Positions 3,682 to 63,500 of a stretch of 64,000 bases of DNA are shown here, piece by piece (the stretch's first letter is position 1; the number at the start of each line of letters is the position of its first letter). This DNA is from Sphingomicrobium sp. Lineage in GTDB: Bacteria > Pseudomonadota > Alphaproteobacteria > Sphingomonadales > Sphingomonadaceae. Below the pieces are notes generated by a model. The model saw nothing but the letters and a program-made list of their open reading frames with translations. It did not search any database and was not told the origin of the DNA. The translations under genes were made by a program, and so were the position numbers. The DNA lies in assembly GCA_035701045.1 (NCBI GenBank), contig DASSOB010000018.1:4583-68582 (forward strand). The letters run 5' to 3'.

Positions 3682-4185
3682 TTGAGCGACAAGCTGCTTC
3701 CGGACCTGCTGGTCGACAAGGCGCGCGAGGTCGTCGATTCGAACCGCGCCGCCGGACGGCGCGTGGCAGTCGCCGAAAGCTGCACGGGCGGCCTGGTCAG
3801 CGCGGCGCTCACGGAAATCCCTGGATCTTCCGACGTGTTCGAGGCCGGCTACGTAACCTATTCCAACGCCGCCAAAATCAGCGAGCTCAAAGTGTCCGAG
3901 GAAGTCGTCGACACGTTCGGCGCCGTCAGCGTCGCCACCGCCTGGGCGATGGCACGCGGCGCACTGGCAGCGTCAGACGCCGACGTGGCGGTTGCAATCA
4001 CCGGCATCGCCGGTCCCGCAGGCGGCACTCCATCGAAGCCGGTCGGCACGGTCGTCTTTGCCCGCGCGGAGCGCGACGCGGATCCTGCGAAAATCGTCGC
4101 CGACCAGAAATTCTTCGACGAGAAGACCCGCTCGGGCGTTCGCCTTCAGGCGGCGCTTTGCGCGCTCGACCTGCTGATGCCGTAG
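3682..4185 (+). CDS. CinA C-terminal domain / nicotinamide-nucleotide amidohydrolase family protein
   Basis: 167 aa with VAVAESCTGGLVSAALTEIPGSS and ITGIAGP. TTG start 1 nt after the ispDF stop. Confidence 0.8.
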   Translation: MSDKLLPDLLVDKAREVVDSNRAAGRRVAVAESCTGGLVSAALTEIPGSSDVFEAGYVTYSNAAKISELKVSEEVVDTFGAVSVATAWAMARGALAASDADVAVAITGIAGPAGGTPSKPVGTVVFARAERDADPAKIVADQKFFDEKTRSGVRLQAALCALDLLMP

Positions 4186-4607: not shown

Positions 4608-5545
4608 CAGCCGCCAATGCCTTCTGCCGTAGCACCACGCTCCAGCTGCGCGAGGCGTGCCGCCTGCATCTTCTTGAAATCGTCGCCGGCATGATAGCTC
4701 GACCGCGTCAGCGGCGAGGCCGCGACCAGGAGGAATCCCTTGGCGCGCGCAATCGCCGCATAAGCATCGAACGCCTTGGGAGTGACGAACTCCTCGACCT
4801 TGGCATGGCGCGGCGTCGGCTGAAGATATTGACCCATCGTCAGGAAATCGACTCCGGCCGAGCGCATGTCGTCCATCACTTGGTGGACTTCGAGCCTTTG
4901 CTCGCCGAGCCCGACCATCAGGCCCGACTTGGTGAAGATGTGCGGCGCCTTGCGCTTGATGCTCTCGAGCAGCCTCAGCGACGCATAATAGCGCGCGCCC
5001 GGACGGATTGTCGGATAGAGCCGCGGCACCGTCTCGAGATTATGGTTGTAGACGTCGGGTCCGGCCTCGACGATCGCATCGACCGCCGCTTCGCTCTTGT
5101 TGCGGAAATCGGGCGTCAGGATCTCGATGGTCGTGCTCGGCGTGTTCCGGCGCAGCGCCTCGATCACCTTGACGAACTGCGACGCGCCCCCATCGACGAG
5201 GTCGTCGCGGTCGACGGAGGTCACGACGACATGCTCGAGGCCGAGCTCGGCGGCCGCCGCCGCGACATGCTCCGGCTCGAGCGGATCGACCGGACGCGGC
5301 ATTCCCGTCTTGACGTTGCAGAAGGCGCAGGCCCGCGTGCAGGTGTCGCCGAGGATCATCACCGTTGCGTGCTTCTTGGTCCAGCATTCGCCGATGTTCG
5401 GGCAGGCGGCTTCCTCGCATACGGTCGCGAGGTTGAGCTCGCGCATCAGCCGCCGCGTCGCATGATAGCCCTCGCTGACCGGCGCCTTGACGCGGATCCA
5501 GTCGGGCTTGCGCTGTCGGGGCGGGATTGCGGCGGGGAGGTTCAT
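4607..5545 (-). CDS. lipA: Lipoyl synthase (radical SAM)
   Basis: [13 protein letters not shown] and [10 protein letters not shown] motifs. Likely start ATG 5545 ([20 protein letters not shown]). The ORF-track start is 5581. Confidence 0.9.
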
Positions 5546-11038: not shown

Positions 11039-11044
11039 TTGCTC

Positions 11045-11430
11045 GTCATCCCGGCCCTGAGCCGGGATCCACCTTCTTATTGATCAGCGACTCAAATCCG
11101 AAGTCCTCGGCCAAATCGCGCCAAGTCGGATTCTCCATTACGATGAGTTGGATTTTCCAATCGCGGTGCCAGCGCTTGATAGACTTCTCGCGACGGATCG
11201 CAGTTTCCATTCTTTCGTGCACTTCGAACCAGACGAGCCGCTTCACCCCATAGCGCGTCGTGAATCCCTTCGTGATACCCTCTCGGTGTTGCCAGGTGCG
11301 GCCCAACAAGTTCGAAGTCACACCTGTATACAGCGTGCCGTGAAAGCCACTTGCAAGCAGGTAAACACAGGGACTCGCTCCATGTGCGTCATCGAATTGA
11401 AGGTGGACCCCGGGTCAAGCCCGGGGTGAC
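11045..11430. mobile_element. Hairpin-TIR-bounded GIY-YIG cassette 1 (candidate selfish element)
   Basis: 32-nt inverted repeats at 11045-11076 and 11399-11430 match at 27/32 positions, and the stem differences are compensatory. They enclose only the GIY-YIG ORF. The interior is visibly more A/T-rich than its surroundings (by eye). Confidence 0.5.
11046..11392 (-). pseudogene. Stand-alone GIY-YIG nuclease gene with a frameshift between the ATG and the GIY motif
   Basis: ATGs at 11392 and 11383 (MTHMERVP) are in one frame. CVYLLASGFHGTLYTGVTSNLLGRTWQHREGITKGFTTRYGVKRLVWFE...REKSIKRWHRDWK is in the next frame. One extra C in the run at 11370-11372 would join them. The ORF track starts at internal GTG 11321. 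Confidence 0.7.
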
Positions 11431-11441
11431 GGTGGAGGGTC

Positions 11442-13199: not shown

Positions 13200-13610
13200 C
13201 CGTTCCCCTGCGAAGGCAGGGGTCCAGACCCGGACTGGAGCTTCAGCGGAAGTCCGGTCATGCTGCGGCCGATGAAAGCCGGGTACGTCTACATCATGGC
13301 GAGCGGCCGCAACGGAACGCTCTACATTGGCGTGACGAGCGATCTCGTGAAACGCGTCTGGGAGCACCGCAACGGCGTCGTTGCGGCTTCACGCGGAAAT
13401 ACGGATGCAAGCTGCTCGTCTGGTACGCTGCTTACGACGAAATTCAGCAGGCGCGATTGCGCGAGCTTCAGATGAAGAAATGGAAGCGCCTGTGGAAGCT
13501 CAGCGAAATCGAGCAGATGAACCCGGACTGGCGGGACCTGTATCCGACGCTGTTGTGAAGCCCCTGCTTCCGCAGGGGCTGTCTGGACCCCTGCCTTCGC
13601 AGGGGAACGG
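13200..13610. mobile_element. Hairpin-TIR-bounded GIY-YIG cassette 2 (candidate selfish element)
   Basis: CCGTTCCCCTGCGAAGGCAGGGGTCCAGAC (13200-13229) is the perfect reverse complement of 13581-13610. A third hairpin with the same stem lies at 13560-13579. Confidence 0.5.
13260..13558 (+). pseudogene. Stand-alone GIY-YIG nuclease gene with an internal 1-nt frameshift
   Basis: MKAGYVYIMASGRNGTLYIGVTSDLVKRVWEHRNGVV is in one frame. GFTRKYGCKLLVWYAAYDEIQQARLRELQMKKWKRLWK...NPDWRDLYP is in the next. The junction is GTTGCGGCTTCACG at 13381-13394, and one extra G would restore the frame. Confidence 0.75.
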
Positions 13611-23827: not shown

Positions 23828-23930
23828 CTGCTTGAAGCGTCATCTCCGCGAAAGCGGGGACCCATCTGTTCTTGTTTCAGAAGCGCGAGTAGCGGAATTA
23901 CCGCTTTCGCGAGCATGAAAAGGTATTTCG

Positions 23931-36458: not shown

Positions 36459-37223
36459 GTGGGAGGGTATCTGGAATCGCTCGGCGCAGTCGAGGCACGC
36501 AGCGCGTTGGCCTGGTGGCTCGATGCGGGAGTCGACGCGGTCATCCAGGAAGAGCCTCGGAACTGGCTGAAACCTCCGAACCCATCAGGGACCGTCCCCG
36601 TTCGGGGACGGTCCCTCGCCGATCCCGGGACTGTCCCCGAACGGGGACTGTTCCAAGCCAACGCCTCGAACCTCACGCTGCCGAGCCAGGAAACGCTGAG
36701 CGAGCTGCAACAATGGCTGGCGAGCAGCGTCGAACTGCCTCTTGCGGGACCGAGCGCCCGGCGAATCCTCCCGCATGGCCCGGTGAATGCCGCGGTCATG
36801 CTGCTGAGCGATTCTCCGGCGCTCGAAGATGCCGCCGCCGGCCAGCCGATCGGCGGCGAAGCTTGGGAGCTGACCCGGCGGATGCTCGCGGCGATCAAGA
36901 TCGATGCGGATGAAGCGTACAGCGCTTCCCTCTCGTGCTTCCACGCGCCGGGCGCCCGCCTCAGCAAAGAAGATCGCGATTCCTGCGCCGAGATCGCGCG
37001 CCGCCACATTTCGCTCGCGCAGCCGAAGCGGCTGCTGCTGTTCGGCGATGGGCCGTGCCTGGCCCTTCTCGGCAAGCGCCTCATCGACGCGCGCGGCCAT
37101 ATCCACAAGGTCGAAGGCGTCCGCACCGTCGCCACGTTCCACCCCCGCCATCTCGTTAATCGACCCTTAGACAAGTCTTTGGCATGGCGGGATCTTCTTC
37201 TTTTGATGGAGGACGGGCGTTGA
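36459..37223 (+). CDS. Uracil-DNA glycosylase superfamily protein (family-4-like fold, non-canonical motifs)
   Basis: 254 aa. C-terminal domain VMLLSDSP...GRLIDARG...VATFHPRHL. The linker contains an in-frame palindromic doublet. Confidence 0.6.
   Translation: MGGYLESLGAVEARSALAWWLDAGVDAVIQEEPRNWLKPPNPSGTVPVRGRSLADPGTVPERGLFQANASNLTLPSQETLSELQQWLASSVELPLAGPSARRILPHGPVNAAVMLLSDSPALEDAAAGQPIGGEAWELTRRMLAAIKIDADEAYSASLSCFHAPGARLSKEDRDSCAEIARRHISLAQPKRLLLFGDGPCLALLGKRLIDARGHIHKVEGVRTVATFHPRHLVNRPLDKSLAWRDLLLLMEDGR
36588..36654. repeat. Inverted doublet of GTCCCC-N4-GGGGAC hairpins inside a coding region
   Basis: GGGACCGTCCCC-GTTC-GGGGACGGTCCC (36588-36615) has a perfect 12-bp stem. GGGACTGTCCCC-GAAC-GGGGACTGTTCC (36627-36654) is imperfect. 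The loops are reverse complements of each other. Confidence 0.7.
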
Positions 37224-48848: not shown

Positions 48849-49343
48849 GTGGAGATCCTGCGAGGGGGAGGCGTCCGCGCGGTCGCGGATATCCGCAGCG
48901 TGCCGCGCTCCCGCACCAACCCCCAATATAATTTCGACGTGCTGGGGGCGGAGCTGGAGCCGCGGCAAATCGGCTACGGCCGAATCCCCGATTTGGGCGG
49001 GCTTCGCGGCCGCTCGCGCGAGGTGCCGCCGGAAATCAATGGCTATTGGGAAAACCGGAGCTTCCACAATTACGCCGATTATGCGCTGTCCGATGCCTTC
49101 GGCGAAGCGCTCGACCAGCTGGTCGCCGGGGCGGCCGAGGTCCCGACCGCGATCATGTGCGCCGAAGCGGTCTGGTGGCGCTGCCACCGGCGGATCGTCG
49201 CCGACTATCTGCTGCTGCGCGGCATCCCCGTCTTCCACCTCATGGGCGGCGGACGGATTGAACCCGCCACGATGACCGCGGCGGCGCGGGAAAAGGAAGG
49301 GCGATTGAACTATCCAGCCTTGGCAGCGCCGCCTCAGGCGTAG
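48849..49343 (+). CDS. DUF488 protein, paralogue 1 (conserved N-terminus extends upstream to about 48797 with no canonical start)
   Basis: GTG 48849 is the first start codon in the frame, but the in-frame upstream codons encode PPVFTIGHSTRSIPEF, the conserved first strand of DUF488. Also CAEAVWWRCHRR. Confidence 0.65.
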   Translation: MEILRGGGVRAVADIRSVPRSRTNPQYNFDVLGAELEPRQIGYGRIPDLGGLRGRSREVPPEINGYWENRSFHNYADYALSDAFGEALDQLVAGAAEVPTAIMCAEAVWWRCHRRIVADYLLLRGIPVFHLMGGGRIEPATMTAAAREKEGRLNYPALAAPPQA

Positions 49344-49765
49344 AGGTGGGTGACTTCCGCGTCGGCGGCGACCGCGTTGAGCAGCAGTGTGCGATGGCAA
49401 TGCGCCGGCTCGCGCTCCATGCACAACAATGCGCTCGGTTTCTCCTTGGCAAGGTCCAGCATCTGCGCCGACTGCGCGATGGCTTCCGGAAGCTCGAGCT
49501 GGCCCGAGTAGATGCGCTGGAGATCGGCGTGCCGACCTGCCCGCGCGGCCGCACGTCCGTCCGCCGGCGTGCCCAGTGCCTTCAGGTGCACATATTCGAT
49601 CCCCGCCTCTCCGAGCGCGCCCCTGAGCGGCGTCTTGGAAAAGCCTGGCCGGCGCGACAACGGCAGCGCGCGAACGTCGATCACCCGTTCCACTCCGGCC
49701 CGCTTCAGCGCGCCGATGAACTCCGGCGCGGTCATGCCCTCGTAGCCGATAGTGAAGATGTGCAT
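49334..49765 (-). CDS. DUF488 protein, paralogue 2
   Basis: ATG 49765 (MHIFTIGYEGMTAPEFIGAL). VIDVRALPLSRRPGF, CMEREPAHCHR. The 3' end overlaps paralogue 1 by 10 nt. Confidence 0.75.
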   Translation of the reverse strand: MHIFTIGYEGMTAPEFIGALKRAGVERVIDVRALPLSRRPGFSKTPLRGALGEAGIEYVHLKALGTPADGRAAARAGRHADLQRIYSGQLELPEAIAQSAQMLDLAKEKPSALLCMEREPAHCHRTLLLNAVAADAEVTHLYA

Positions 49766-49777
49766 GGTTGACCTTCC

Positions 49778-49862
49778 GTCATGCTGAACTCGTTTCAGCA
49801 TCCATTTCGGAGACGGGCACAGCACTTCACGAAAATGGACCCTGAAACAAGTTCAGGGTGAC
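49778..49862. repeat. Gene-less inverted doublet of GTCA-hairpin-TCCA elements (REPIN/MITE-like)
   Basis: GTCATGCTGAACTCGTTTCAGCATCCATTT (49778-49807) matches the reverse complement of 49833-49862 (GTCACCCTGAACTTGTTTCAGGGTCCATTT) at 25/30 positions. Both stem changes are compensated. The spacer is 25 nt. Confidence 0.65.
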
Positions 49863-49892
49863 GGCGCACGGCTCGGCCACTAATTGCGCACG

Positions 49893-51260
49893 ATGCCTTT
49901 CGACATCCAGATCATCGGCGGCGGGCTCGCCGGATCAGAGGCCGCGTGGCAGCTCGCGGAAGCGGGCTTCCGCGTCCGCCTCAGCGAAATGCGCGGCGGC
50001 GGCGACATGACGCCGGCGCATCAGACCGACCGCCTCGCCGAAATGGTCTGCTCGAACAGTTTCCGTTCGGACGATCCGGAGCACAATGCCGTCGGCCTGC
50101 TGCATCAGGAGATGCGCGCGCTGGATTCGCTCGTCATGAGGGCAGCGGACGCGCATCGGGTTCCGGCCGGTTCCGCACTCGCGGTCGACCGCGATGCTTT
50201 CGCCGCGGAAGTCACGCGGGCAATCGCCGGGCACCCGAACATCGCGATCGTGCGCGAGCGCGTCGACGCGCTGCCCGATCACCCCACGATCGTCGCCACC
50301 GGCCCACTGACCGGATCGAAGCTCGCCGAGGCTATTTCCACGGAGACCGGTGAAGGCACCCTGGCCTTCTTCGACGCCATCGCTCCGATCGTCCACCGCG
50401 ACAGCATCGGCATGGACGTCGCCTGGATGGCCGCGCGCTGGGACAAGGGCGGAAAAGACTATGTGAACTGTCCGTTGGACAAGCCGCAGTACGAAGCTTT
50501 TGTCGCGGCGCTGATCGAAGGCGAAAAGATGCCCTTCCACGAGTGGGAGAAGGACACGCCTTATTTCGAGGGCTGCATGCCGATCGAGGTCATGGCCGAG
50601 CGCGGTCCCGAGACCCTCCGCCACGGCCCGATGAAGCCGGTCGGCCTCGACAATCCCCGTACCGGTCGCTGGCCTTATGCGGTCGTCCAGCTCCGGCAGG
50701 ACAATGCGCTCGGCACCTTGTGGAACATGGTCGGCTTCCAGACCAAGCTGAAGCATGGCGAGCAAGTGCGGATATTCCGCAGCATCCCGGGCCTGGAGAA
50801 AGCCGAATTCGCCCGGCTTGGCGGAATCCACCGCAACAGCTTCATCAATTCGCCGCGGCTGCTCGACCGCGAGCTGCGCCTCAGGTCGAAGCCGAACATC
50901 CGTTTCGCCGGCCAGATCACCGGCTGTGAAGGCTATGTCGAAAGTGCCGGCGTCGGGATCCTCGCTGCCCGCTTCGCCGCTGCCGAGCTGCGCGGCGAAC
51001 AGCTGCCTTCGCCGCCCGTCGAATCCGCCCTGGGCGCGCTGCTCGGCCACATCACCGGCGGCGCCGACGCCGAGACCTTCCAGCCGATGAACGTCAACTT
51101 CGGCCTCATGCCGCCGCCCCCGGGCCAAGCCCGCAAAGCCGACCGCAAAAAAGCCTACAGCGACCGCGCCCGAGCGGCATTCGGCGAATGGCTGGAGGAA
51201 ATTCCTCCCCGCCGCGAAGCGGTGGGGAGGGGAACCGTGCGCAGCATGGTGGAGGGGTAA
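49893..51260 (+). CDS. trmFO: Methylenetetrahydrofolate--tRNA-(uracil-5-)-methyltransferase
   Basis: [35 protein letters not shown]. The last roughly 12 codons run into the inverted repeat of the DUF559 cassette. Confidence 0.9.
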
Positions 51261-51653
51261 CTACCGCCCGCAGGCAAGAAGAATCGCCGTAACCACCGAC
51301 TGTAAGTCGCGGATCACATCCGTTGCGTTGAATCGCAGGACTCGCAGACCCCGGCTGCGAAGCCAATGATCCCGACGGACATCCCGCTCGGGATTGTCGC
51401 CCATCGAATGACTCTCGCCATCCACCAATGGCGAGCCGCGTCGCGGGGCAATAGAAGTCTACGATGCAGCGGCCGATCGGGTGCTGATACCTGAATTTGA
51501 GTCCGTCCGGACGCTGCCGAAGCACTTGCCAAAGCATGCCTTCCGGGAGCGTCATGCTGCGTTTCAGGGCGCGAGCCCGCAGCACTGTCTCGTTCTTGTC
51601 TCGTCTTGGTGGCATTGACCCCTCCACCATCCTCCGGATGGTTCCCCTCCCCA
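51223..51653. mobile_element. Inverted-repeat-bounded DUF559 endonuclease cassette (candidate selfish element)
   Basis: CCCCTCCACCATCCTCCGGATGGTTCCCCTCCCCA (51619-51653) matches the reverse complement of 51223-51257 at 31/35 positions. The ORF start and stop each lie 3 nt inside the repeats. Confidence 0.45.
51261..51615 (-). pseudogene. DUF559 (Vsr-like endonuclease fold) gene with an internal frameshift
   Basis: MPPRRDKNETVLRARALKRSMTLPEGMLWQVLRQRPDGLKFRYQHPIGRCIVDFYCPATRLAI is in one frame. VDGESHSMGDNPERDVRRDHWLRSRGLRVLRFNATDVIRDLQSVVTAILLACGR is in another. The junction lies at 51424-51431. Confidence 0.75.
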
Positions 51654-60557: not shown

Positions 60558-63500
60558 TTAAGCTGCCGAATAATAGGATTGGAGCGATGCGACTTCAAGC
60601 GCATGGCCCCGCACCGCCTCGATCGACCGCGCCGCGGCGAGGCTCGCCGCGGCAGTGGTGAAATAGGGCACCTTGCGCTGCAGCGCGGTCGCCCTGATCG
60701 AGTGGCTGTCCTTCAGCGATTGCCAGCCTTCCGTGGTGTTGAACACCAGGTCCACATCGCCGTCCAGAAGCTTGTCGACGATGTGCGGCCGCCCCTGCGC
60801 CACCTTGTTCACCGTCTCGACCGGAAGCCCCTTCGCTTGCAGGTGCGCGGCGGTGCCGCCAGTGGCGATGATCCTGAAGCCGAGCTCGACCATTTTCTCG
60901 ACGGCGGGGACGATATTGTCCTTGTCGGCGTCCTTGACCGACACGAACGCCGTCCCGCTTTGCGGCAGGATCATGCCCGCGCCGAGCATAGCCTTGGCGA
61001 AAGCTATATCGAAATCTCTATCGATTCCCATCACTTCACCAGTACTTTTCATTTCTGGTCCAAGCACGGGATCGGTCCCGGGGAAGCGCGCGAACGGGAA
61101 AACCGGCCCCTTGACCGCGATATAATCGAGATTGTGCGCGATTGGGCCGAGGCTGCTCAGCGCCTCTCCCGCCATGACCCGCGCCGCGAACTTGGCGACT
61201 GGTTTGCCGATCGCCTTCGCCACGAATGGCACCGTGCGGCTCGCGCGCGGGTTGACCTCGATCAGATACACCTCGCCGTCCTTCACCGCGAACTGAATGT
61301 TCATCAGGCCGAGCACCTTGAGCGCCAGCGCCAGCTCGCGCGCCTGCCGCTCGATCTCCTCGATAATCCTCGGCTCAAGGCTGTGCGGCGGGATCGCGCA
61401 GGCGCTGTCGCCCGAATGCACGCCCGCTTCCTCGATATGCTGGAGCACGCCGCACACCGCGACGTCCGTCCCGTCGCAAATGGCGTCCACATCCACCTCG
61501 ATGGCATCGCGGAGATAGCGGTCGATCAGCACCGGGCTCCGGCCCGACACCTGAACCGCGGTGGCGATATAATGGTCGAGCTGCTGCGGCCCGTCGACCA
61601 CCTCCATCCCGCGCCCGCCGAGCACGTAGGACGGCCTCAAGAGGACCGGATAGCCGATCTTCTCCGCGACCCGCAGCGCCTCGTCGCGGCTGCGTGCGAT
61701 GCCGTTCGCCGGCTGCTTGAGGTTCAGCTGCTGCACCAGCGCCGCGAAGCGTTCGCGGTCCTCGGCGAGGTCTATGCTGTCTGGCGACGTGCCGAGGATC
61801 GGCACCCCCGCCGCCTGGAGCTCGGCCGCGAGCTTCAGCGGAGTCTGGCCGCCCAGCTGGACGATCACGCCCAGAAGCTCGCCTTTCTCCTGCTCCCGCC
61901 GGACGATTTCGAGCACGTCCTCGGTCGTCAGCGGCTCGAAATAGAGCCGGTCCGACGTGTCGGGGTCGGTCGACACCGTCTCCGGATTGCAATTGACCAT
62001 GATGACTTCGAAACCGGCGCCAGCCTGGCCGTTGCGGTCGCGCCCGAGCGCGAAGGCGGCGTGGCAGCAGCAATAGTCGAATTCGATCCCCTGCCCGATC
62101 CGGTTCGGCCCGCCGCCGAGGATCATGATCTTGCGCCGGTCGCTGACCTGGGCCTCGTCCACGGGCTCACCGAACAAAGGCGCCTCGTAGGTCGAATAGA
62201 GATACGGCGTAGTAGCGTCGAACTCCGCGGCGCAGCTGTCGATCCGCTTGAACACCGGACGGACACCGAGCTTCAACCGATGCTCGCGCACCTCGCCCTC
62301 GGTAACGCCGCCGGTCATCGCCCGGATCGCGCTGTGCACGACGCCCGATCCGGCCGCGGCGACCGCCTCGCTCATCTCGCGTTCGACATGCGCCGAGCGG
62401 AGCGCCAACTGGGCAAGCCGTGCATCCGAGAAGCCCATGGCCTTCAGCCGCCGCATTCCCCGCGCATCGCTCGGAAGGCCGTTCACGCGAATGTCTTCCT
62501 CGGCGCGAACGATTTCTTCCAACCGCTTGAGAAACCACGGATCGAAGCCGGCGATTTCGTTGATCCGCTCGACCGTAAAGCCCTGGCGGAGCGCTTCGGC
62601 GGCGACCAGCAGCCGGTCGGGCGTCGGCCGCGCCAGCACGTGCTCGATCTCCGCCGGATCGGCATTTTCGAGCTCGCGCACCCGGTCGAGCCCGCAAAGT
62701 CCTGTTTCCAGCCCGCGAAGCGCTTTCTGCAGGCTTTCGGCGAAGCTCCGCCCGATCGCCATCACCTCGCCGACCGATTTCATCGAGGTCGTCAGGATCG
62801 CGTCCGCGCCCTTGAACTTCTCGAAGGCGAAGCGCGGGATCTTCGTCACGACATAGTCGATCGTCGGCTCGAAGCTCGCGGGAGTCGCGCCGCCGGTGAT
62901 GTCGTTGGCGATCTCGTCGAGCGTGTAGCCGACCGCCAGCCGCGCGGCGACCTTGGCGATCGGAAAGCCCGTCGCCTTCGACGCCAGCGCCGACGATCGC
63001 GACACGCGCGGGTTCATCTCGATTACGACCATCCGTCCGGTCTTCGGATCGACCGCGAACTGGACGTTGGAACCCCCTGTTTCGACGCCAATTTCCCGCA
63101 GCACCGCGATGCTCGCCGAGCGCATCCGCTGATATTCCTTGTCGGTCAGGGTCAGCGCCGGCGCGACGGTGATGCTGTCGCCCGTATGCACGCCCATCGG
63201 ATCGACATTCTCGATCGAGCAGACGATGATCGCATTGTCGGCGCGGTCGCGCACGACCTCCATCTCAAATTCCTTCCAGCCGAGCACCGATTCCTCGATC
63301 AGCACCTCGGTCGTCGGGCTCGCCTCCAGCCCGCCCGAAACGATCTGCACGAACTCGTCGCGATTGTAGGCGATGCCCCCGCCCGTCCCGCCGAGCGTGA
63401 AGCTTGGACGGATGATCGCCGGCAGTCCGACGCTGTCGAGCGCCGCCAGCGCCTCGTCGAGCGTGTGGGCGATCATCGAGCGTGGACTTTCGAGCCCGAT

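Follow-up and report, generated by a model that had tools for sequence, protein, structure and literature searches.

A gene-less CGTC-tagged hairpin doublet between the DUF488 and trmFO genes of a Sphingomicrobium contig, probably a REP dimer of the Ssn-related type

The DUF488 and trmFO genes in a 64-kb stretch (the window) of Sphingomicrobium sp. contig DASSOB010000018.1 are divergent, and 85 of the 127 nucleotides (nt) between them are taken up by a pair of inverted hairpins, referred to here as the doublet. The start codon of DUF488 lies 12 nt from the doublet and that of trmFO 30 nt from it. The sequence-only reading had placed the doublet between these two divergent genes, which the Pfam assignments and the 127-nt spacer bear out. 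It is highly probable that the doublet is a non-coding, CGTC-tagged repetitive extragenic palindromic (REP) dimer, that is, a doublet of Ssn-related motifs (SRMs) and a putative substrate of a nuclease of the Ssn family, and that it was inserted as a unit of approximately 86 bp and then inherited as a passenger, not as a dedicated regulator of trmFO. The coordinates of the doublet, the neighboring genes and the GIY-YIG cassettes of the window are collected in the table.

Table. Coordinates of the doublet, its neighboring genes and the GIY-YIG cassettes in the window
Feature	Position	Strand	Details
Unit 1, 'TG' stem type	49777..49807	+	read directly, by pattern match and by single-stranded DNA (ssDNA) fold
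Unit 1, CGTC tag	49777-49780
Unit 1, stem	49781-49788 with 49794-49801		ATGCTGAA with TTCAGCAT
Unit 1, loop	49789-49793		CTCGT
Unit 1, CCA tail	49802-49804		followed by TTT
Spacer between the 30-nt units	49808..49832		25 nt; CGGAGACGGGCACAGCACTTCACGA
Unit 2, 'CC' stem type	49833..49863	-	minus-strand reading CGTCACCCTGAACTTGTTTCAGGGTCCATTT
Unit 2, stem	49839-49846 with 49852-49859		plus-strand coordinates; 8 bp, ACCCTGAA/TTCAGGGT; CCA tail
Unit 2, loop	49847-49851		plus-strand coordinates; CTTGT, 5 nt
DUF488 gene, left neighbor	49334..49765	-	Pfam PF04343, E 5e-28
trmFO (GidA-family, folate-dependent tRNA U54 methyltransferase), right neighbor	49893..51260	+	Pfam PF01134, E 1e-98
GIY-YIG (ssn-type) cassette 1	11044..11431	-	arms GTCATCCCGGCCCTGAGCCGGGATCCACC and GTCACCCCGGGCTTGACCCGGGGTCCACC; different hairpin subfamily
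GIY-YIG (ssn-type) cassette 2	13200..13610	+	perfect 30-nt arms CCGTTCCCCTGCGAAGGCAGGGGTCCAGAC, CGTT tag; third hairpin subfamily

The plus strand reads GTCATGCTGAACTCGTTTCAGCATCCATTT at positions 49778-49807, and positions 49833-49862 read GTCACCCTGAACTTGTTTCAGGGTCCATTT when reverse-complemented. The arrangement first proposed, two 30-nt units with their TCCA sides inward and 25 nt between them (49808-49832), is borne out by the sequence. The units also agree at 25 of 30 positions, as had been claimed; of the five differences, four amount to two compensated changes of a stem pair (T:A to C:G and G:C to C:G), and one is in the loop. The unit sequences given in that reading are present, but with one T dropped; the loops are 5 nt (CTCGT and CTTGT). 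Pairing between the A of GTCA and the T of TCCA brings the stems to 8 bp rather than 7. A CCGTCA tag at 49776-49781 has a mirror copy at 49859-49864, and the inverted repeat of the doublet reaches 1-2 bases further out than the units (CCGTCA/TGACGG) and approximately 9 bases further in, where the ends of the spacer prolong it (TCCATTTCG / CGAAAATGGA). The inverted repeat, I1, has 43-nt arms that are 77% complementary. Folded as ssDNA, units 1 and 2 give -7.4 and -7.1 kcal/mol, respectively (z about -3.4), and the entire doublet can be folded as one long hairpin of -26.9 kcal/mol (z -6.3). Only the two doublet units match a pattern of 24 specified bases in the 64-kb window with at most three mismatches, and the pattern had no match in 100 dinucleotide shuffles of the window.

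Bacterial REPs have been sorted into GTAG- and CGTC-tagged super-families (Di Nocera, De Gregorio & Rocco 2013, PMC3733652). CGTC REPs have a CGTC tag, or the variants TGTC and CCTC, an 8-9-bp stem that opens with A:T, a 4-5-nt loop and a CCA tail (PMC3733652). Both units of the doublet have this architecture, including an unpaired CGTC tag. CGTC REPs are found mostly in Alphaproteobacteria, among them S. chlorophenolicum, S. wittichii and N. aromaticivorans, and occur predominantly as dimers whose units are inverted in a single orientation and separated by 20-100 bp; families 2 and 3 are mostly heterodimers (PMC3733652). The CGTC-2 'HH' heterodimers share with the doublet the CGTC tag, the 8-bp A:T-opening stem, the 5-nt loop and the CCA tail, a match at the level of architecture.

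The hairpin of the doublet, referred to as the CTGAAC subfamily, is widespread. One genome per species was scanned for GTCANNCTGAACNNGTTTCAGNNTCCA (21 specified bases), and at least 120 stretches matched, nearly all from Sphingomonadales (Sphingomonas, Sphingobium, Novosphingobium, Erythrobacter, Sphingopyxis and others). Stretches from other genomes are cited here by L numbers, and the unit, pair and spacing counts are those among the matches listed from these stretches. The 193 exact units form 60 inward-facing '+-' pairs as compared to 6 '-+' pairs. Measured between the 27-nt cores, gap lengths peak sharply at 35 nt (22 pairs), and the window doublet has a gap of 31 nt. In 187 of the 192 distinct units, Watson-Crick pairing is preserved at the two variable stem positions; the units are chiefly of the TG/CA (87), CC/GG (64) and TC/GA (32) types. 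A C precedes GTCA in 88% of these units, and the ten bases upstream are G-poor. Forty-four of 48 doublets are heterotypic, compared to about 59% expected from the arm frequencies (binomial p about 1e-6, with copies that are not fully independent), and TG+CC, the combination in the window, is the commonest arm pairing (31/48). The same 21-specified-base hairpin was also seen in 44 stretches of predicted viral or proviral contigs (IMG/VR, L208-L251), often as doublets. Within the 64-kb window, the subfamily is represented by this one copy only.

Doublet ends lie within 30 nt of a gene 3′ end in 36 of 101 cases, compared to 6.7% in controls, an approximately fivefold excess. There is no enrichment of gene starts beside doublet ends (25% as compared to 21% in controls). 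The position of the window copy between two gene starts is therefore less usual. In their inverted dimers, their preference for heterodimers and their placement at gene 3′ ends, the sphingomonad doublets are like the CGTC REPs described previously, among which a position between divergent genes, such as that of the window copy, is rarer (PMC3733652). Neisserial dRS3/NIME arrays and the Rickettsia palindromic elements RPE-4 and RPE-6 also belong to the CGTC super-family (PMC3733652). The mosaic hairpin-spacer arrays of dRS3/NIME have counterparts in sphingomonads, in L082 (four tandem doublets) and in plasmid L206 (two adjacent doublets). However, dRS3/NIME, RPE-4 and RPE-6 have other stems and other hosts, and the window copy is a single isolated doublet that is not intragenic. 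The array in L082 (62-639, Sphingomonas echinoides) consists of TG+TC doublets with a 163-nt period and near-identical 35-nt spacers and inter-doublet segments, and is BIME/NIME-like in its sequence organization.

The CGTC REPs were reported to "apparently lack a dedicated transposase" (PMC3733652). Whereas that study concluded that no dedicated enzyme exists, the CTGAAC hairpins are associated with ssn genes in several Sphingomonadales. Across genomes, inward-facing units fall into the doublet class with its 35-nt mode and a single gene-sized spacing class of 347 nt (n=3; L055, L066 and L108), which bears on the comparison of doublet spacing with gene-carrying flanks. In all three loci exact units stand on both sides of an intact GIY-YIG gene. 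The exact CTGAAC hairpin thus flanks intact genes in other Sphingomonadales, L104 included. In L104, L092 and L027, the ssn gene has a CTGAAC hairpin on one or both sides. The intact single-domain GIY-YIG genes between or beside CTGAAC hairpins in these six stretches encode 102-121 amino acids (aa; 108-121 aa in the 347-nt class), and Pfam GIY-YIG (E 1e-13 to 1e-17) was the only match above the cut-off in hairpin-associated proteins of 102-111 aa. L027 also carries a complete doublet, approximately 90% identical to that in the window, which stops 4 nt ahead of the ssn start codon. The cassettes of L066 and L108 share their inner flanks (TCCATCGTGC...GCACGATGGA) with many doublets that have a 35-nt spacer, which is consistent with doublets having first arisen from cassettes.

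A function for hairpin-associated GIY-YIG proteins is known from Neisseria. Chenal et al. (2025, PMC11893778) began from the Neisseria repeat CGTCATTCCCGCGMAVGCGGGAATCYRG, known as NTS, and found, in many phyla, NTS-like hairpins on either side of small genes (ssnA) that encode a single GIY-YIG domain. Binding by SsnA requires the hairpin to be ssDNA, and the cut falls a few nt upstream; cutting is governed by the 3 nt before the palindrome and binding by the C after it (PMC11893778). In N. meningitidis, SsnA lowers transformation by NTS-bearing DNA (PMC11893778). The hairpin-gene-hairpin arrangement was likened to an insertion sequence and an analogy to REP/RAYT was drawn, with no mobility shown, and Sphingomonas and Rhizorhabdus were named as SRM-rich (PMC11893778). 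The doublet has the same CGTCA-[stem-loop-stem]-TCC layout as SRM/NTS, the Neisseria NTS being CGTC-A[stem]T-C. Like the sphingomonad loci, the Ssn system has small GIY-YIG genes flanked on both sides by hairpins with their tails inward, and its gene lineages are paired with different stems; three subfamilies are present in the window alone. In L078, TGTCATTCCCGCGAAAGCGGGAATCCAG, which is essentially the Neisseria NTS, flanks a sister protein that shares 50-57% identity with the CTGAAC-associated proteins. This provides an indirect link, through sequence similarity, between the sphingomonad proteins and the characterized Neisseria system, and illustrates how a gene lineage may pair with a stem sequence. 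Function has been shown only in Neisseria, in the restriction of transforming ssDNA.

The window itself contains two ssn-type cassettes. The TCCA-inward arrangement around GIY-YIG genes that was first pointed out was confirmed at both (11044-11431 and 13200-13610), each having the order tag-hairpin-TCCA, gene, TGGA-hairpin-tag. The doublet and cassette hairpins share the CGTC tag, an 8-bp stem opening with A:T and the CCA tail, and the sequence comparison supports placing the doublet hairpin in the same super-family as the hairpins flanking the GIY-YIG genes of the window. The stems differ: TGCTGAA/CCCTGAA in the doublet, TCCCGGC/CCCCGGG in cassette 1 and CCCCTGC in cassette 2. The cassette 1 gene (11046-11400, -), whose protein shares 60% identity with the L027 Ssn associated with CTGAAC hairpins, has no in-frame start codon ahead of the GIY motif and is likely a pseudogene. 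The cassette 2 gene (13260-13558, +) has a frameshift near 13382-13385 that splits the tblastn match over two frames. Both genes look inactivated through single-base changes in homopolymer runs; real decay is likelier than sequencing error, since neighboring housekeeping genes are intact. The proposal that the doublet is a non-autonomous REPIN- or MITE-like derivative of gene-carrying cassettes holds at the level of the class, as a gene-less doublet of hairpins that flank GIY-YIG genes elsewhere. It does not hold for the cassettes of the window as the source, because the stems differ and both ssn genes look inactivated.

A structural scan of the window for TCA, a 7-nt stem, a loop, the complementary stem and TCC returned 5 sites, as compared to 0.4 expected. 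These are the two doublet arms, the two arms of 11044-11431 and a weaker site at 61928-61953 with a 6-nt loop and one stem mismatch. Other repeats were also seen in the window. A CGTC-type unit, CGTCATCTCCGCGAAAGCGGGGACCCAT, within 23838-23925 matches the published SRM pattern and has an apparent decayed inverted partner (reverse complement TTCATGCTCGCGAAAGCGGTAATTCC) approximately 25 nt away; by its sequence, this region probably represents a fourth subfamily, in the form of a dimer in decay. A palindromic element of approximately 125 bp at 2419-2545, with arms AAGCCGCTCATCCTGAGTAG.../...CTACTCAGGATGAGCGG, is 85% identical to L027 5267-5383. L027 is a metagenome-assembled genome that also carries the closest copies of the doublet, and the palindrome may likewise be a small repeat that these genomes have in common. 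Tandem near-perfect 28-nt palindromes at 36588-36654 (GGGACCGTCCCCGTTCGGGGACGGTCCC and GGGACTGTCCCCGAACGGGGACTGTTCC) are without a CGTC tag and may be a terminator pair or another type of repeat.

Relatives of trmFO gathered by protein look-ups and a metagenome scan reveal a junction that is empty in some genomes and filled in others. The closest TrmFO relative found by protein look-up is 91% identical, the homologues are named methylenetetrahydrofolate--tRNA-(uracil-5-)-methyltransferase in their source records, and DUF488 orthologues in relatives are 76-87% identical. In L122, L124/L125, L129 and L133, DUF488 is followed by a conserved 41-nt spacer (GCTGGATAGCGC...GACTAACAGCCC) and then trmFO; L135 has the same spacer after another upstream gene. 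The 127-nt spacer of the window corresponds to 42 nt plus the 85-nt doublet. L126 and L026 have a CTGAAC-type doublet in the same position and orientation, with the TG arm distal, 30-32 nt from the ATG and with similar spacer ends and left flank; one arm has decayed in each. A different CGTC-type doublet (GTCATTGCGAG...GCAATCCA) lies 6-11 nt from the ATG in L123, L127, L130 and, in part, L128. No SRM-like hairpin was detected at about 60 more distant trmFO loci. Counted together, a CTGAAC-type doublet stands upstream of trmFO in 3 of approximately 16 close relatives and in none of the approximately 60 more distant ones, a sample that speaks against its conservation at this position throughout most Sphingomonadales. 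The comparison of presence and absence at this locus therefore found both the junction without the doublet and the doublet shared with L126 and L026.

When the doublet is removed, the window sequence aligns straight over the junction in 10 relatives. A flank-joining BLAST of all fetched loci gave junction-spanning matches (69-78% identity) solely for the window locus. In a neighbor-joining tree of TrmFO, the window groups with L121, which has no doublet and a rearranged upstream gene, and with L126, which has the doublet. The simplest reading of these alignments is one old insertion of a CTGAAC doublet in this clade, followed by decay or loss in some lineages, with a different CGTC family probably having reached the same junction independently at least once. 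The doublet at the window locus looks like an approximately 86-bp insertion that appears to be old and vertically inherited and not recently moved. These observations fit a mobile or recombinogenic passenger and not a conserved regulatory structure. The CGTC-tagged repeat GTCATTGCGAGCGAAGCGAAGCAATCCA upstream of trmFO in L123 (3925-4000), L127 (2411-2500) and L130 (2411-2500) forms doublets with very short spacers. It was seen as 19 units and 7 doublets, and a search for a gene-carrying version of this TTGC-type repeat found none in the fetched loci.

Doublets are repeated as whole units. In L027, the doublets at 3813-3897 and 4727-4811 share 95% identity over their whole length and 90% within the spacer, with 60-nt flanks at background similarity. 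The window doublet shares 87-91% identity with the L027 and L075 copies, and its spacer is 74-77% identical to the spacers of L027 and L075 doublets at unrelated loci, as compared to a background of about 55-65%. A spacer shared among unrelated loci favors duplication of the whole doublet over independent deletions of ssn genes in situ. An observation on plasmids concerns exchange at such hairpins. The backbones of L206 (S. yanoikuyae pA3, NZ_CP060123.1) and L207 (Sphingomonas pSH, NZ_KU237244.1) are 97-100% identical, and pA3 carries two adjacent doublets of different CGTC types (697-980) in place of a 462-nt hypothetical gene of pSH. The left breakpoint falls exactly at GC|GTCA. The pair was considered as a clean insertion and rejected as such, because the doublets replace a gene; the alignment instead suggests a cassette-like exchange at hairpin boundaries.

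A sequence of events consistent with these data can be proposed. When either strand becomes single-stranded during replication, repair or DNA uptake or transfer, its unit would fold into an 8-bp stem with a 5-nt loop. Once folded, the hairpin would have its CGTC tag exposed and unpaired at the 5′ side, with the C(CA) tail at the 3′ side. By analogy with SsnA, the hairpin would be bound by an Ssn-family nuclease, a small protein with a single GIY-YIG domain and the appropriate specificity, which would nick a few nt 5′ of the tag (top strand, roughly 49770-49776; bottom strand, roughly 49864-49870). The inversion of the two units would leave exactly one cleavable site per strand. Heterotypic arms weaken arm-to-arm pairing and may therefore protect the doublet from palindrome-directed cleavage, as also suggested by Di Nocera et al. 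(PMC3733652). The doublet would have entered the DUF488-trmFO spacer as a unit of approximately 86 bp in an ancestor of the lineage and been inherited since. Passenger and putative substrate, it would nevertheless now occupy the 5′ region of one or both genes. A cognate Ssn, if the genome encodes one, may act on this copy, and Ssn may also spread such doublets.

Several points weigh against this proposal. The 64-kb window holds no cognate ssn gene with CTGAAC hairpins, and no ssn-like sequence was found beyond the two cassettes or in the 25-nt spacer. Searches of NCBIfam and of PDB sequences with the associated proteins gave no relative. The published degenerate SRM pattern, HGTCWYN(0-2)YYVSBRHN(0-5)WNVSBRGN(0-2)RNCYNB, matches neither doublet unit, because the doublet stems are AT-richer. 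The pattern is a search heuristic from 29 genomes and not a functional definition; it matches 11403-11431 (-) and 23838-23865 (+) in the window as well as an NTS example. The relatives are 12-25% diverged in DNA, and the insertion boundaries and any target-site duplication are therefore not readable to the nucleotide. Both arms are perfectly intact even though the element seems old at this locus, which could indicate a selected local function or gene conversion instead of a passive passenger. Mobility driven by a GIY-YIG protein is an inference: transposition by such a protein has never been demonstrated, here or in the literature. Ssn is known only as a nuclease and is not known to transfer or ligate DNA strands. 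With a single cut site on each strand of an inverted doublet, a full transposition mechanism cannot be written.

The intact arms bear on the possibility that the doublet is a locus-specific cis-regulatory structure for trmFO and/or DUF488, such as a 5′-untranslated-region hairpin, an attenuator, a protein-binding palindrome or an insulating terminator, kept by selection. The doublet lies within the 127-nt divergent 5′ region, and its arms are both intact as compared to one decayed arm each in L126 and L026. The region folds strongly as RNA (-50.9 kcal/mol, z -4.5), and a T-rich run after the hairpin of unit 2 on the minus strand gave the sole terminator-like match in a terminator scan. A GGAAGG just outside the tag, with no similar motif at the empty sites of relatives, would by its placement serve as the Shine-Dalgarno sequence of DUF488. 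Yet the doublet is absent from most relatives, which keep the conserved 41-nt spacer, and the decayed arms of L126 and L026 show no covariation. Near-identical doublets occur at many unrelated loci in many genera, mostly by gene 3′ ends, and a terminator is not expected between two gene starts. A promoter scan of the region found no promoter-like site, and an Rfam search gave only sub-threshold noise and no family at threshold. A promoter read by hand, with ACTAAT as the -10 element and the GTGACG end of the doublet as the -35 element, was too weak and was not used. Selection for a regulatory role is thus unlikely. A local effect on the expression of trmFO or DUF488 is possible all the same, because the doublet replaces the middle of the conserved promoter-proximal spacer of the relatives and because GGAAGG sits in the Shine-Dalgarno position for DUF488; neither the promoter scan nor the Rfam search gives it direct support. 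Directly downstream of trmFO (51223-51653, -) is a DUF559-like reading frame (Vsr-type endonuclease fold) that looks frameshifted and lies between 61-nt inverted repeats in which GGGGAGGGG is abundant. At the corresponding position, relatives have a DUF559 gene of 98 aa that is intact (L122 5369-5665; L123 5366-5662).

The remaining alternatives differ in how they account for the repeated doublets. An ssn gene may once have stood between these arms at this locus and been deleted, the doublet never having been copied as such. The inner flanks common to cassettes and doublets agree with this history, and ssn reading frames end inside the hairpin, such that deletion derivatives are easily imagined. 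It is nonetheless very improbable, given that doublets with the same spacer stand at unrelated loci of one genome (L027, 90% spacer identity with unrelated flanks), that independent deletions would not be expected to yield a sharp mode of spacer length, and that the 25-nt spacer contains no detectable ssn remnant. A classical REPIN, that is, a GTAG-type REP doublet mobilized by a RAYT (Y1/HUH) transposase and not by a GIY-YIG protein, would also have two inverted hairpins separated by a short spacer, fold into one long hairpin and exist in many copies, and RAYT and other IS200-type genes are present in many species with CGTC repeats (PMC3733652). The tag is CGTC and not GTAG, though, no RAYT or IS200 gene was found flanked by CGTC units (PMC3733652), and the sole gene class between inward-facing units in the fetched loci is the 347-nt GIY-YIG class, with no class of 450-550 nt. 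There is accordingly little reason to credit a RAYT-driven element, which we consider highly improbable. A chance palindrome has a negligible probability. The GC-rich background yields many weak inverted repeats, but the shuffled sequences gave no match and the same 21-specified-base pattern recurs in at least 120 genome stretches and in the 44 stretches of predicted viral contigs; on these two grounds, chance was rejected.

Of these possibilities, an inherited CGTC dimer related to Ssn motifs best accounts for the doublet, and its likeness to REPINs is one of form. REPINs consist of two inverted REP hairpins plus a spacer and fold into a long hairpin, and the REPIN/RAYT system, like the CGTC doublets, shows many copies alongside a few copies of a flanked gene, and long vertical persistence (Bertels & Rainey 2011, PMC3116915). 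REPIN/RAYT depends on a GTAG tag and an HUH/Y1 transposase, whereas the doublet has a CGTC tag and a GIY-YIG nuclease without known joining activity. Excision of REPINs has been observed experimentally, and there is nothing comparable for CGTC doublets. It is conceivable, if doubtful, that CGTC heterodimers are the replicating unit of a REPIN-like system in which an Ssn helper is the 'missing dedicated enzyme' of the CGTC REPs, TG and CC/TC arms are distinct left and right ends, and short divergent 5′ spacers are recurrent landing sites. The last point is raised because two different CGTC families have occupied the DUF488/trmFO junction in close relatives.

The element described here is already known in kind: a catalogue of CGTC REP dimers appeared in 2013, and the 2025 study discussed the IS-like hairpin-ssn-hairpin layout. 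The single copy in the window matters little in itself, being one ordinary instance of a known repeat class. Heterotypic arms and the gene-less inverted doublet as a unit are not described in the 2025 study, which does not cite the 2013 one either (PMC11893778), and the comparison made here joins the literatures on CGTC REP dimers and on Ssn/SRM, which are without mutual citation. The published SRM pattern misses a large, AT-richer sphingomonad subfamily, and SRM counts for sphingomonad genomes are therefore underestimates. The L027, L055, L066 and L108 loci supply concrete pairs of gene and hairpin for the study of TG versus CC stem specificity. Finally, the filled, empty and differently filled series at the DUF488/trmFO junction is usable for the study of effects on neighbor expression or of recombination breakpoints.

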